Shown here piece after piece: positions 144 through 4,982 of a stretch of DNA of 64,000 bases. The notes beneath the pieces are model-generated. The model made no database searches, had not been told where the DNA came from, and was given only the letters and a program-made list of their open reading frames with translations. The position numbers were made by a program, and so were the translations under genes. The stretch lies in NCBI RefSeq assembly GCF_988243305.1, contig NZ_OZ547136.1. One strand, given 5' to 3'. Numbering within the stretch: the stretch's first letter is position 1; every line of letters begins with the position of its first letter.

Positions 144-1154
144 ATGGATAAAATTACCCAGGTTTTATTTTCAGATATTGGGAAAGTCACCACTCAATAT
201 GTTGAAGTACCACACCAGCAACTTAAACCGCACGAAGTACGGATTGCGCCCGTGTTCTACGGGATATGCGGTTCGGATCTGCATGTTCTGAAAGGCGGTC
301 ATCCGTTTGCCAAACCGCCTGTCGTCCCCGGTCATGAAATTGCAGCGCGCGTTACGGAAGTGGGCAGCGACGTTAAAAATGTACAGCCGGGCGATCATGT
401 TGTGGTCGATCCCATCATGGCTTGCATGGAATGCCGAGCCTGCAAAGCAGGACGTTTTAATCTTTGTGAACCACCGCAGGTTGCTGGTTTTCGCGCACCG
501 GGCTTTGCTCGCTCACAACACATTGTTCCTGCGCGTAATTGCCATGTCGCACCAGCCTCTTTACCGCTAAAAGTGTTGGCCTTTGCCGAACCGGCGGCTT
601 GTGCTCGTCACTGCGTTAACCGAATGCCGAAAGCTTCTCTGGAAAGCGTACTGGTGATTGGTGCCGGAACGATAGGCTTATCCATCGTGCAGGCACTGCG
701 CATTATGGGGGCAGGTAAGATTACCGTGATTGAACCTGACGCTGCCAAACGCGCGCTGGCGTTAAAGCTGGGCGCAGCAGAAGTTTGGGCACCAGGTGAG
801 CTGGCCGCAGATGTGCGATTTACGGGGGCGATTGATGTCGTTGCAGCGCAGGCCACGCTTAACGATGCATGTACCCGTGTATATGCCGGAGGCACCGTCG
901 TGTGCATGGGCGTACCAAGTGGGCCGCGTGAAATACCATTACCGATGATGCAACGTTTCGAGCGTGACTTGCTCAACTCTGGCATGTACATCCCTGAAGA
1001 TTTCGATGCTGTTATCGAATGGCTGGCGGATGGGCGGTTTGATACCAGTGAACTGGTTACCGATTTATTTGCCATTGAGGATGCAGCGGCGGCATTCGAA
1101 CGCGCGCAGCAAAATGACTCCATAAAGGTCATGCTGCAATTTGCGCCGGAATGA
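144..1154 (+). CDS. Zn-dependent medium-chain polyol/alcohol dehydrogenase (sorbitol/L-idonate dehydrogenase-like)
   Basis: 336-aa ORF; GHE and Cys-rich Zn-binding region (CGSDLH, CMECRAC) and GAGTIG Rossmann motif; SD upstream. Confidence 0.8.
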   Translation: MDKITQVLFSDIGKVTTQYVEVPHQQLKPHEVRIAPVFYGICGSDLHVLKGGHPFAKPPVVPGHEIAARVTEVGSDVKNVQPGDHVVVDPIMACMECRACKAGRFNLCEPPQVAGFRAPGFARSQHIVPARNCHVAPASLPLKVLAFAEPAACARHCVNRMPKASLESVLVIGAGTIGLSIVQALRIMGAGKITVIEPDAAKRALALKLGAAEVWAPGELAADVRFTGAIDVVAAQATLNDACTRVYAGGTVVCMGVPSGPREIPLPMMQRFERDLLNSGMYIPEDFDAVIEWLADGRFDTSELVTDLFAIEDAAAAFERAQQNDSIKVMLQFAPE

Positions 1155-1223
1155 TTTTCTAAATCTCTGTCTGGCGCTGCGTCACGTCAGCGCCACCCTA
1201 CAACAATTAAAAAGGACACTGCG

Positions 1224-2755: not shown

Positions 2756-4105
2756 ATGTCTGAAAAGTTACCCGCACCGCGTGAAGGGCTTTCCGGTAAA
2801 GCCATGAGACGTGTCGTTATGGGCAGTTTCGCAGGCGCGTTAATGGAATGGTATGACTTCTTTATTTTTGGCACGGCAGCAGGACTGGTATTTGCACCGC
2901 TGTTTTATCCAGACAGCGATCCTTTTATAGGTCTTATAGCTTCCTTTGCGACCTTTGGTGTCGGTTTTCTGACTCGTCCTTTAGGTGGCATCGTCTTTGG
3001 TCATTTTGGCGATAAAATCGGGCGAAAAATAACGCTTATCTGGACGCTGGCTATTGTCGGTTGCTCCACATTTTTGATTGGTTTTATTCCGACGTATCAG
3101 GAAATTGGGATCTGGGCACCGCTCATATTAATGGTGCTACGTTTAATTCAGGGCTTTGGTCTTGGTGGCGAGTACGGCGGAGCGGCATTGATGACCATAG
3201 AATCAGCGCCCGAATCCCGACGCGGATTTTTAGGTTCACTCCCGCAAACGGCTGCGTCTGTGGGTATTATGCTGGCAACCGGTATTTTTGCTCTCTGTAA
3301 CCATTTTCTTACTTCGGAGCAGTTTCTCTCCTGGGGATGGCGCATTCCGTTTTGGCTTTCTGCGGTGATGTTGATCGTTGGGCTGTTTATCCGCCTGCAT
3401 ACCGAAGAAACGCTGGATTTTCAAAAGCAAAAAACGACGAATAATAAAGAAAAGTCCGTTCCTCCGTTGATTGAATTATTCAAAAAACATCCACGAAATA
3501 TTTTATTGGCACTGGGTGCGAGGCTGGCGGAAAGTGTCTCCTCTAATATTATTAACGCCTTTGGTATTGTCTATATTTCCAGCCAATTAGCATTGTCGCG
3601 AGATATTCCCCTGACGGGTATGTTGATTGCCTCGGCGATCGGTATTTTCAGTTGTCCATTGGTTGGATGGTTATCAGATCGTATAGGTCAAAAAAGTCTG
3701 TATTTGTCGGGAGCAGGATTTTGTGTCCTGTTCGCGTTTCCTTTCTTCTTATTACTGGATAGCAAAAGTACGCTCATCATCTGGTGCAGTATGATCCTCG
3801 GCTACAACTTAGGTCCGACGATGATGTTTGCCGTGCAGCCAACACTTTTCACCCGCATGTTCGGTACCAAAGTACGATATACCGGCCTTTCTTTTGCTTA
3901 TCAATTTTCCGCGATTCTTGGCGGACTAAGCCCCCTTATCGCCTCAAGTTTGCTGGCGCTAGGGGGAGGAAAACCGTGGTATGTCGCTCTGTTTTTATTT
4001 GCTGTCTCAGTTCTTTCCTTTGTTTGCGTCTGGCTGATTGAGCCGACCGATGAACAAGAAACCGCTTCTTACCGCTACATCAGGGAACAATCTCATGAAA
4101 ACTGA
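2756..4105 (+). CDS. MFS metabolite:H+ symporter-like transporter, 449 aa
   Basis: Hydrophobic ORF with MFS-like N-terminal signature (GxxxDxxGRK-like); SD GAGAGGA upstream. Confidence 0.7.
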   Translation: MSEKLPAPREGLSGKAMRRVVMGSFAGALMEWYDFFIFGTAAGLVFAPLFYPDSDPFIGLIASFATFGVGFLTRPLGGIVFGHFGDKIGRKITLIWTLAIVGCSTFLIGFIPTYQEIGIWAPLILMVLRLIQGFGLGGEYGGAALMTIESAPESRRGFLGSLPQTAASVGIMLATGIFALCNHFLTSEQFLSWGWRIPFWLSAVMLIVGLFIRLHTEETLDFQKQKTTNNKEKSVPPLIELFKKHPRNILLALGARLAESVSSNIINAFGIVYISSQLALSRDIPLTGMLIASAIGIFSCPLVGWLSDRIGQKSLYLSGAGFCVLFAFPFFLLLDSKSTLIIWCSMILGYNLGPTMMFAVQPTLFTRMFGTKVRYTGLSFAYQFSAILGGLSPLIASSLLALGGGKPWYVALFLFAVSVLSFVCVWLIEPTDEQETASYRYIREQSHEN

Positions 4106-4982
4106 ACGAAAAAACGAGCATTACCTGGCGCTACAACAGGCGTTTGACGCGCCATGGCCTGGGCCTGTAGGAGAGTTAGTGACGCTGGAAAAAGGCAATA
4201 TTCACCTGCAGATTTATCCGCATGATGGTGCCAGGATAACCTCGTTAAAGGCATTTGGTTCTGAAGTATTACGCCAATGGCAGCCGCAGCGCAGAGCTTT
4301 TCAGTATGGCTGTTTCCCAATGGTGCCGTGGGCAGGGCGACTGGGGAATGCGACGCTGAATGCTGGTGGGCAATGTTATTCTTTACCCGCCAATAAACCA
4401 CCACATGCGTTGCATGGTATGGCTTGTTACTCAACGTGGGAAATCATCGACAAAACAACAGATTCCCTGACTTTACGTATGCCCCTGGCTTCACCGTGGC
4501 CCTGGCAAGGGGAAGTGATTCAGACTTTTTTGCTGGAGAACGATGCGCTGGTTTTGCAACTGGAAGTCCATTCATATGCCGATACATTCCCGGCCTCTGC
4601 AGGCTGGCATCCGTGGTTTGCGAAAAAGCTGACTCCGCAAAATACAGAATCGTTGCAGGTGCTTTTTGATGCGGACTGGCAAGAAGAAGCGGGTAGTGAT
4701 GAACTGCCAACTGGAAATCGTATCTCTCCTCAAGCCGGTCCCTGGGATGACTGTTTTGGTTTTTATGACGGGGTGAAGGTTAAGTTACTGTGGCCTGGTA
4801 AACTCGCGATGACCATGATCTCTTCTGCAAACAGTCTGGTGGTATTTGATAAACAGCCCGATGCCACCTGTATTAACCCGCTGACTCAGGCACCTAACGC
4901 AATAAATCTAACGCCGGAATTGGTGACACCAGATAGGCCGCTGGTCATCGAAACTCGTTGGCAATTTACACCTGAATCTTAA
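4095..4982 (+). CDS. Aldose 1-epimerase family protein (YihR-like)
   Basis: ORF frame open from 4038; ATG at 4095 overlaps upstream stop (ATGA), suggesting translational coupling; start ambiguous (4038 vs 4095). Confidence 0.65.
   Translation: MKTERKNEHYLALQQAFDAPWPGPVGELVTLEKGNIHLQIYPHDGARITSLKAFGSEVLRQWQPQRRAFQYGCFPMVPWAGRLGNATLNAGGQCYSLPANKPPHALHGMACYSTWEIIDKTTDSLTLRMPLASPWPWQGEVIQTFLLENDALVLQLEVHSYADTFPASAGWHPWFAKKLTPQNTESLQVLFDADWQEEAGSDELPTGNRISPQAGPWDDCFGFYDGVKVKLLWPGKLAMTMISSANSLVVFDKQPDATCINPLTQAPNAINLTPELVTPDRPLVIETRWQFTPES

Follow-up and report, generated by a model that had tools for sequence, protein, structure and literature searches.

Breakdown of the plant sulfosugar sulfoquinovose (SQ) in the gut feeds 2,3-dihydroxypropane-1-sulfonate (DHPS) to sulfite-respiring, H2S-producing bacteria. 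The route of Escherichia coli K-12, a sulfoglycolytic counterpart of the Embden-Meyerhof-Parnas pathway (sulfo-EMP), is encoded by the cluster ompL-yihOPQRSTUVW, reportedly described by Denger and colleagues in 2014. A similar logic of dehydrogenase, PfkB kinase, aldolase and major facilitator superfamily (MFS) transporter serves an acidic sugar in the E. coli ydj cluster, which comprises the Zn-dehydrogenases YdjL and YdjJ, the kinase YdjH, the class II aldolase YdjI and the MFS protein YdjK. Hybrid sulfo-EMP1/2 pathways built of mix-and-match parts, among them the class II aldolase SqiA, are defined by an SQ isomerase, either YihS or SqvD (Sharma et al. 2023, PMC10665668). Within E. coli, Kaznadzey et al. 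(2025, PMC12608037) named a "short yih cassette (yihTUVW)" that is reversed in orientation and enriched in pathogens; it was viewed as truncated, lacking the first pathway steps and probably retired from SQ catabolism. Here we analyzed a 64,000-nucleotide stretch of contig NZ_OZ547136.1 (NCBI RefSeq assembly GCF_988243305.1; hereafter the window), which is 100% identical to E. coli strain C4 and carries, at positions 144 to 4982 just upstream of yihX, genes for a zinc-dependent dehydrogenase, two MFS transporters and an aldose-epimerase-like protein. We find that these genes make up the half that had gone unrecognized in a probable dehydrogenase-type version of the sulfo-EMP operon, one that is complete and conserved across a wide range of taxa.

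The open reading frame (ORF) listing of the window revealed four intact genes on the + strand, and the RefSeq annotation of C4 contains the same four. The Zn-dehydrogenase gene adh (144-1154; 336 aa) encodes an NAD-type medium-chain dehydrogenase with the Pfam domains ADH_N and ADH_zinc_N. It is followed by mfs1 (1224-2657; 477 aa; MFS/Sugar_tr in Pfam and NCBIfam), by mfs2 (2756-4105; 449 aa; MFS, with metabolite:H+ symporter and ShiA as nearest models) and by epi (4095-4982, longest ORF from 4038; Pfam Aldose_epim, PF01263), whose RefSeq start is the ATG at 4095, so that the two genes share 11 nt at the mfs2 stop; yihX lies downstream of epi (5123-5722). The first 111 nucleotides of the window are the 3' end of another + strand gene, yihT', for a YihT-like class I sulfofructose-1-phosphate (SFP) aldolase; in the C4 annotation it starts 776 nt upstream of the window (C4 locus L001 14224-15111, i.e., window -776 to 111). 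Inspection of the 15 kb upstream of the window in C4 placed four more cassette genes there, so that positions 144 to 4982 cover the distal half of the unit. In the complete order, yihN is followed by the DeoR regulator gene yihW' and the PfkB kinase gene yihV', both on the minus strand, and then on the plus strand by yihU'-yihT'-adh-mfs1-mfs2-epi, with yihU' labeled sulfolactaldehyde 3-reductase in the C4 annotation. Spacers from yihU' to mfs2 measure 24, 32, 69 and 98 nt, the 11-nt overlap comes next, and scanning for canonical terminators gave none short of the cassette's end. This spacing points to a six-gene operon, yihU'-yihT'-adh-mfs1-mfs2-epi, with a divergent pair yihV'-yihW'.

Comparison of C4 with K-12 by blastn delimited the variable segment to L001 11413-20055, that is, up to window position 5055, with K-12 homology resuming at 5056. 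The cassette thus replaces ompL-yihOPQRSTUVW between yihN and yihX, with 8.6 kb in C4 versus 11.9 kb in K-12. Flanks are 98-99% identical to K-12, whereas the shared yih genes are inverted and only about 65-67% identical at the DNA level, which rules out a simple truncation or inversion of the K-12 cassette. The original prediction, made from the sequence of the window, had proposed an alternative carbohydrate cassette of four co-directional genes with an overlapping start and stop before the epimerase-like gene, at a place where K-12 was said to have yihW. All of this held: MG1655 does have csqR (yihW) directly 5' of yihX, and the segment, far from being identical to the standard yih cluster, has no megablast-level similarity to K-12. 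What did not hold is the idea of an independent four-gene polyol module, as the genes form the downstream part of an operon that begins with yihU' and yihT' and is paired with yihV' and yihW'. Because of this association with yih homologues, the substrate is most likely a sulfonated sugar or sugar alcohol and not a generic polyol.

The cassette matches the published short yih cassette in its locus, its reversed orientation, the 72% identity of YihW to CsqR and its carriers of the extraintestinal pathogenic E. coli (ExPEC)/B2 type, such as sequence type (ST) 131 and avian pathogenic E. coli (APEC) O1. In Nissle 1917, where the short cassette is present, it is not induced by SQ in vivo; Nissle YihW is 72% identical to CsqR and binds DNA more weakly, yet SQ releases it from DNA in vitro (PMC12608037). 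Release by SQ implies a sulfosugar-like effector, and the lack of induction in vivo implies a different natural substrate or inducer. Nissle 1917 nevertheless grows on SQ like K-12, with no yihS homologue elsewhere in carrier strains (PMC12608037). Where that work describes a four-gene truncation, we find four further genes contiguous with yihU' and yihT' and conserved together with the kinase and aldolase; the dehydrogenase, the two MFS genes and the epimerase-like gene are not mentioned in its text, legends or supplement. Nor is a dehydrogenase-containing variant without isomerase described in recent reviews or in the class II aldolase survey, and the literature searched contained nothing on the RefSeq accessions of the cassette proteins or on a pathway combining sulfofructose (SF) with a zinc-dependent dehydrogenase. 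The existence of the allele is therefore published, while the composition of the cassette, its conservation across phyla and the entry chemistry that it implies are new.

The three enzymes shared with K-12 retain all published sulfonate-binding residues. Identities to K-12 CsqR, YihV, YihU and YihT are 72% (yihW'), 67% (yihV'), 72% (yihU') and 67% (yihT'), and YihU' passes the NCBIfam equivalog model for sulfolactaldehyde (SLA) 3-reductase, NF012005, with 579 bits versus a cut-off of 348. The sulfonate pockets consist of K27-N109-R138 in the kinase, R253 and A26 with the Schiff-base K193 in the aldolase, and N174-S178 with the R123 backbone in the reductase (Sharma et al. 2021, PMC8006165). 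The kinase triad, along with D13, S95, D162 and D244, is kept in E. coli, Citrobacter, Vibrio and Budvicia, as are reductase residues R123, K171, N174 and S178; A26, K193, S226, S227 and R253 are kept in every class I aldolase examined. Kinase, reductase and regulator of the E. coli cassette belong to the enterobacterial yih lineage. YihT', however, is closer to a Rhodopseudomonas aldolase (73%) than to K-12 YihT (67%), which indicates that the aldolase travels with the dehydrogenase module.

That module extends well beyond the enterics. A profile scan of genome contigs with the dehydrogenase alignment returned 80 loci, of which 9 were orthologous and the rest shared a generic medium-chain dehydrogenase/reductase motif; neighborhoods were therefore taken from contigs encoding orthologues. 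Sixteen clusters were examined, 13 of them by tblastn within 10 kb on either side and the other three (Citrobacter MGH106, Klebsiella oxytoca and Succinatimonas) by gene calls. They come from three Citrobacter species, Phytobacter, K. oxytoca, Budvicia, Jejubacter, Vibrio rhodolitus, Succinatimonas and Sutterella, and, among alphaproteobacteria and actinobacteria, from Rhodopseudomonas palustris BisB18, Pleomorphomonas, Streptomyces, a Propionibacteriaceae metagenome-assembled genome and Prauserella. In all 16 the dehydrogenase adjoins the PfkB kinase, the aldolase, the DeoR regulator and MFS1 and/or MFS2. Homologues of YihS, YihQ, YihO, YihP and OmpL were found in none of the 13 tblastn-scanned loci, and YihS, YihQ, YihO and YihP were likewise missing from the gene calls of the other three. 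Neither isomerase, YihS (PF07221) or SqvD (PF02952), is present, with no YihS homologue annotated in the C4 cassette, and a sulfoquinovosidase (YihQ of GH31, or GH188) is absent from the cassette and all related loci.

Some clusters exchange individual enzymes. In Vibrio and Budvicia a class II aldolase stands in place of YihT', and the best PDB matches of the Vibrio protein are 8Q58 and 8Q57 (E values of 1e-108 and 1e-104, versus 4e-72 for AgaY), the accession codes given for structures of the class II SFP aldolase SqiA (PMC10665668). In Jejubacter an aldehyde dehydrogenase (Aldedh) replaces the reductase, and such an enzyme occurs in sulfolactate-forming sulfo-EMP variants (PMC12890257). Both swaps are of a kind typical of sulfoglycolysis. 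The clusters thus resemble the sulfo-EMP1/2 hybrids in their mix-and-match parts, including SqiA-type aldolases and the alternation of SLA reductase with aldehyde dehydrogenase, but differ from them in lacking an isomerase and always containing a Zn-dehydrogenase. Two further observations concern these loci: the Jejubacter cluster includes one enolase-superfamily (MR_MLE) gene on the opposite strand, and the non-YihU reductase of the alphaproteobacterial and actinobacterial clusters, represented by that of R. palustris BisB18 (L003 12506-13384), matches PDB entry 9k2j, deposited as '3-hydroxyisobutyrate dehydrogenase', with an E value of 1e-63 versus 2e-29 for YihU (6sm7).

The dehydrogenase scores 92 bits with ADH_N and 64 bits with ADH_zinc_N. 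Across 25 orthologues, the catalytic-zinc site (C42, H64, E65 and E149), residues R117, R160 and R271, the structural-zinc ligands C94, C97, C100 and C108, and the GxGxxG motif (G173, G175 and G178) are invariant, and the acidic, NAD-type residues E197 and D199 are nearly so. Its nearest solved structure is RspB (4ilk; about 35% identity as judged by eye from the alignment), other close characterized relatives being ketose reductase, sorbitol dehydrogenase and L-idonate 5-dehydrogenase, that is, polyol/aldonate 2(5)-dehydrogenases, which act on the penultimate carbinol of their hexitol or hexonate substrates; several orthologues carry the JGI name L-gulonate 5-dehydrogenase. It fell into no named NCBIfam equivalog (YdjJ, IolM, Tdh, IdnD, GatD and others), the best scores being 165, 149, 139 and 125 bits versus cut-offs of 376 to 469. 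The top match is PRK10083 (165 bits versus 376), which we take to be YdjJ. With orthologues tightly grouped at 55-94% identity, the protein represents an unnamed orthologue group within the zinc-dependent medium-chain polyol dehydrogenases. Like MFS1 and MFS2, it has no counterpart among the proteins of the K-12 yih cluster.

As a kinase and an aldolase that require a 2-ketose always accompany this polyol-type dehydrogenase and an isomerase never does, the simplest reading is that the enzyme would form a keto-sugar upstream of the kinase. The RspB-type L-gulonate 5-dehydrogenase shares its zinc ligands and NAD motif, and by analogous chemistry an anionic hexitol or hexonate would be oxidized at its penultimate carbinol, yielding a 2-ketose; the cassette enzyme differs in having sulfoglycolytic partners instead of mannonate dehydratase or fructuronate reductase. 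A role in a sulfoglycolytic Entner-Doudoroff pathway (sulfo-ED), with oxidation of SQ to sulfogluconolactone, was rejected: no cluster has a lactonase, a dehydratase or a 2-keto-3,6-dideoxy-6-sulfogluconate (KDSG) aldolase, and the kinase and the aldolase forming dihydroxyacetone phosphate (DHAP) are always present.

MFS1 is distantly similar to the aromatic-acid:H+ symporter and sugar-porter families and has no meaningful similarity to YihO or YihP. Its orthologues in other genera occupy the same position (64-91% identity) and are missing from Jejubacter and Prauserella, the two clusters without a reductase of the beta-hydroxyacid dehydrogenase (beta-HAD) family. MFS2 comes close to the metabolite:H+ symporter family model TIGR00883 but stays below its cut-off (407 bits versus 443), as it does with the shikimate-transporter model (410 versus 538), and is the only MFS type kept in those two minimal clusters. 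Since the clusters that lack MFS1 are exactly those that lack the reductase, and MFS2 is the sole MFS type of both minimal clusters, MFS2, of the ShiA/KgtP-like organic-anion type, may tentatively be assigned as substrate importer and MFS1 as exporter of the C3 sulfonate product; this is a weak inference.

The epimerase-fold protein matches positions 1-196 of the 299 in PF01263 (79.7 bits versus a cut-off of 27), and the closest solved protein is 3nre. The aldose-epimerase-like character named in the original prediction is thus confirmed, but not the likeness to YihR, with which identity is 26% over 164 residues; the NCBIfam aldose-1-epimerase model was not passed either (33 bits versus 251). 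H107 and H172 are invariant in the alignment. By the roles assigned in GalM-type enzymes, these are the catalytic His pair, to be completed by a catalytic Glu base. At the site of the Glu in the YihR motif 'VEPMS', Asn is found in E. coli, Citrobacter, Klebsiella, Raoultella, Mixta, Vibrio, Sutterella and Succinatimonas, whereas the epimerase-fold proteins of Budviciaceae, Alphaproteobacteria and Streptomyces have Glu, so that the split follows clades. Just upstream lies an invariant family-specific motif, 'QPDA(T/A)C'. Together, the dimorphism and the motif suggest a modified or different catalytic mechanism. No epi gene occurs in the clusters of Streptomyces RFCAC02, Prauserella and Jejubacter, and the E. 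coli protein is 71-74% identical to that of Citrobacter, versus 82-94% for the other seven. To judge from these comparisons, it is the least constrained part of the cassette, neither an orthologue of YihR nor a proven mutarotase.

We next consider the distribution and age of the cassette, which the original prediction had called strain specific. It was covered to at least 80% in 1327 of 5426 complete E. coli genomes, among them ST131, APEC O1 and O104:H4, and the K-12 ompL-yihS segment was covered to the same extent in 3879. Three Citrobacter species have the same cassette in the same context (typA-yihLMN and yihXY-dtd-fabY), and in Phytobacter ursingii its neighbors are typA on one side and yihXY-dtd-fabY on the other, yihLMN not being detected there. 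Protein divergence of the cassette between genera resembles that of the flanking genes, and its GC content (46-53%) is like that of the flanks. These features rule out a recent genomic island or horizontal transfer from a distant donor. Synteny in Citrobacter and Phytobacter with flank-like divergence identifies the cassette as one of two major alleles of an anciently dimorphic locus and not as a strain-specific island; the two alleles exclude each other and have been maintained at a single chromosomal position in several genera.

Three divergent E. coli strains each retain intact copies of the eight genes, and the ratio of nonsynonymous to synonymous polymorphism (pN/pS) is 0-0.22 for seven of them. 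For epi it is 0.6-1.5, on very small counts. Seven genes are hence under purifying selection, epi being perhaps the exception; a decaying pseudogene cluster is ruled out for the seven, and decay may still apply to epi. Variation at the margins of the cassette was also seen. In E. coli XJ6-3 (L089 6610-7062) all that a third, rarer allele retains between yihN and yihX is parts of the variant DeoR and PfkB genes and the final 62 bp of the cassette; it is a deletion derivative of the variant cassette. In APEC O1 (phylogroup B2; L091 1-326) typA is directly followed by the variant DeoR gene, with yihL, yihM and yihN absent, and the left cassette junction therefore differs between lineages. In Citrobacter sp. 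R56 (L006 15360-18098) an autotransporter-like ORF of 912 aa, with proline-rich repeats and a C-terminal beta-barrel-like region, lies between the epimerase-like gene and yihX.

Taken as a whole, the cassette shares with K-12 sulfo-EMP its site between yihN and yihX, homologues of the regulator and of the SF kinase, SFP aldolase and SLA reductase with their pocket residues, two transporters, a mutarotase-fold protein and the predicted products DHAP and DHPS. It departs from it in being inverted, at about 66% nucleotide identity, in not being induced by SQ and in having a Zn-dehydrogenase and two unrelated MFS proteins instead of YihQ, YihS, OmpL and the transporters YihO and YihP of the glycoside-pentoside-hexuronide (GPH) type. 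We therefore propose, with a probability of roughly 0.55, that it encodes a sulfo-EMP-like sulfoglycolysis able to run without a sulfoquinovosidase and without an aldose-ketose isomerase. An MFS symporter, probably MFS2, would import a free anionic C6 sulfonate, and the NAD+-dependent Zn-dehydrogenase would oxidize a secondary alcohol to yield 6-deoxy-6-sulfofructose. YihV' would then phosphorylate SF, YihT' would cleave the product to DHAP and SLA, and YihU' would reduce SLA to DHPS with the NADH from the dehydrogenase step, a re-use that would make the sulfonate branch redox neutral. DHPS would leave through the second MFS protein, probably MFS1. The epimerase-fold protein could act as a dispensable helper that interconverts anomers of a sugar intermediate, and YihW' would keep the divergent promoters repressed as long as no sulfosugar ligand is bound. 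The favored substrate, chosen by analogy with L-gulonate 5-dehydrogenase, which makes fructuronate, is 6-deoxy-6-sulfo-D-glucitol, though a sulfo-hexitol as the specific substrate is a tentative and rather doubtful choice. The broader proposition, a sulfoglycolytic pathway with the dehydrogenase acting upstream of the kinase, lies between slightly better than even and fairly probable, the upper end applying if SQ as the substrate is counted in.

Several points weigh against this proposal. 6-Deoxy-6-sulfo-glucitol is no known natural product, and 'sulfoquinovitol' was not found in the literature searched. With a mutarotase-like partner, a reducing sugar is a more fitting substrate than a polyol. 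Alphaproteobacterial and actinobacterial kinases and reductases are only about 30% identical to YihV and YihU, fall into different subfamilies and lack N109/R138 and N174/S178, so that sulfonate specificity is supported for the enteric and Vibrio clusters and extrapolated to the others. The predicted operon structure and direction of transport are read from gene spacing and the two minimal clusters. Finally, growth of Nissle on SQ without induction either speaks for SQ as the substrate of a constitutively expressed cassette or has no bearing on the cassette.

The alternative that survives best, possible although on balance unlikely, retains the same pathway and products with SQ itself as the substrate. 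The epimerase-like protein would supply the right anomer or the open chain, and the dehydrogenase would replace YihS by a redox route, either through C2 oxidation and C1 reduction or through reduction to the alditol followed by re-oxidation. A mutarotase-fold gene does stand beside the dehydrogenase in most clusters, but it is missing from some, and in E. coli it has Asn for the catalytic Glu and relaxed pN/pS. We know of no medium-chain Zn-dehydrogenase that isomerizes an aldose, which also counts against this route. Nissle 1917, a carrier of the cassette without a yihS homologue, matches K-12 in growth on SQ, and SQ dissociates YihW' from DNA in vitro, yet SQ does not induce the cassette in that strain (PMC12608037). 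Klebsiella sp. ABR11 is cited in bioRxiv 10.1101/2019.12.17.868638 as having grown on SQ, made DHPS and displayed an NAD+-specific SQ dehydrogenase activity, and K. oxytoca carries a dehydrogenase-type cluster; however, the activity was interpreted as sulfo-ED, and no genome ties it to adh.

An acid sugar without a sulfonate group is a less promising substrate, and we consider it improbable. Here an aldonate such as L-gulonate would be oxidized to a keto-uronate, phosphorylated and cleaved to DHAP and tartronate semialdehyde, with reduction of the latter to glycerate and recruitment of the yih-like genes for carboxylate analogues. In keeping with it, the closest characterized relatives of the dehydrogenase (RspB, L-idonate 5-dehydrogenase and sorbitol dehydrogenase) act on aldonates or polyols, the MFS2 family is known for carboxylate transport, the alphaproteobacterial and actinobacterial kinases and reductases lack the YihV and YihU sulfonate residues, and the dehydrogenase-kinase-aldolase logic resembles that of the ydj cluster, with YdjH and YdjI among the PDB matches. 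The ydj cluster nonetheless differs from the cassette, as homology is distant, its enzymes are not sulfonate specific and it has no SLA-reductase homologue. Against this reading, E. coli and its relatives keep all sulfonate-pocket residues of YihV, YihT and YihU, YihU' passes the SLA-reductase cut-off, the class II aldolase is far nearer to validated SFP aldolases than to AgaY or fructose-bisphosphate aldolase (1e-108 versus 4e-72 for AgaY), the regulator responds to SQ in vitro, and the need to export the product, as suggested by two MFS genes, is more natural for a dead-end sulfonate than for glycerate.

Scavenging of free SF or sulforhamnose released by other bacteria appears more improbable still. 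The dehydrogenase would then act downstream, on SLA or DHPS, for instance in the role of an additional SLA reductase or of a DHPS 2-dehydrogenase. The cluster minus the dehydrogenase does hold everything needed from SF onward, and the Prauserella cluster combines a related dehydrogenase (45% identity) with the lack of a beta-HAD reductase. But almost every cluster also has a dedicated SLA reductase, or in Jejubacter an aldehyde dehydrogenase, so that a further enzyme for this C3 aldehyde would be redundant; moreover, the relatives of the dehydrogenase are hexitol or aldonate enzymes, not C3 enzymes. The published view of yihTUVW as a truncated, retired remnant of the SQ cassette beside an unrelated sugar/polyol module of four genes, which the lack of SQ induction, the weaker DNA binding of YihW' than of CsqR (PMC12608037) and the existence of deletion derivatives such as that of XJ6-3 could favor, is very hard to reconcile with the adjacency of kinase, aldolase, dehydrogenase and MFS genes in the same order across Proteobacteria and Actinobacteria, with a YihT' nearer to the Rhodopseudomonas aldolase (73%) than to YihT (67%) and hence part of the dehydrogenase module, with pN/pS of at most 0.22 in 7 of 8 genes and with the 65-67% nucleotide identity to K-12 that excludes simple truncation.

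Two structured elements were detected within the cassette. A perfect 34-nt palindrome with a 15-bp stem (2659-2692) occupies the mfs1-mfs2 spacer directly 3' of the mfs1 stop, and its predicted RNA fold has -25.9 kcal/mol (z = -7.2). It was not found in Citrobacter or the other cassette loci and is specific to the E. coli version; it could be an intra-operon RNA stem-loop that serves as a stabilizer or attenuator between the two transporter genes. A 13-bp stem-loop on the + strand (4993-5033; -20.2 kcal/mol, z = -4.4) lies directly 3' of epi, the last cassette gene, and is not a canonical terminator because it lacks a U-tract. Elsewhere in the window, an uninterrupted ORF of 617 aa (8385-10238, + strand) is split in the C4 RefSeq annotation into a 'hypothetical protein, partial' and a 'transposase'. 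Pfam gave no significant match for this ORF, which carries a CX5R phosphatase-like signature, C-K-S-A-K-D-R-T, resembling the SopB/IpgD active site; on the strength of this motif it may be a mis-annotated effector-like gene.

Current surveys score SQ degradation in E. coli by yihS and yihQ, and the approximately 25% of strains with the cassette, including many extraintestinal pathogens and reportedly Nissle 1917, are counted as defective. If the proposed dehydrogenase-first sulfoglycolysis is correct, the 'short yih cassette' would instead be a complete, functional pathway. We put at about even the chance that it represents an undescribed, dehydrogenase-dependent entry into sulfoglycolysis, conserved over a range that takes in Streptomyces, Rhodopseudomonas, Klebsiella, Vibrio and one in four E. 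coli, ST131 and APEC O1 included, as well as Nissle 1917 by identification with the published cassette. Such an entry would imply either an unrecognized natural pool of a sulfonated sugar alcohol or sulfosugar, or an NAD-linked SQ isomerization that replaces YihS and SqvD. It may also explain how Nissle grows on SQ without an isomerase, and why a DHPS-forming Klebsiella was long ago reported to have NAD-dependent SQ dehydrogenase activity. The sulfur cycle would thereby gain a new entry step, and possibly a new natural substrate, which would change which enteric strains are predicted to make DHPS.

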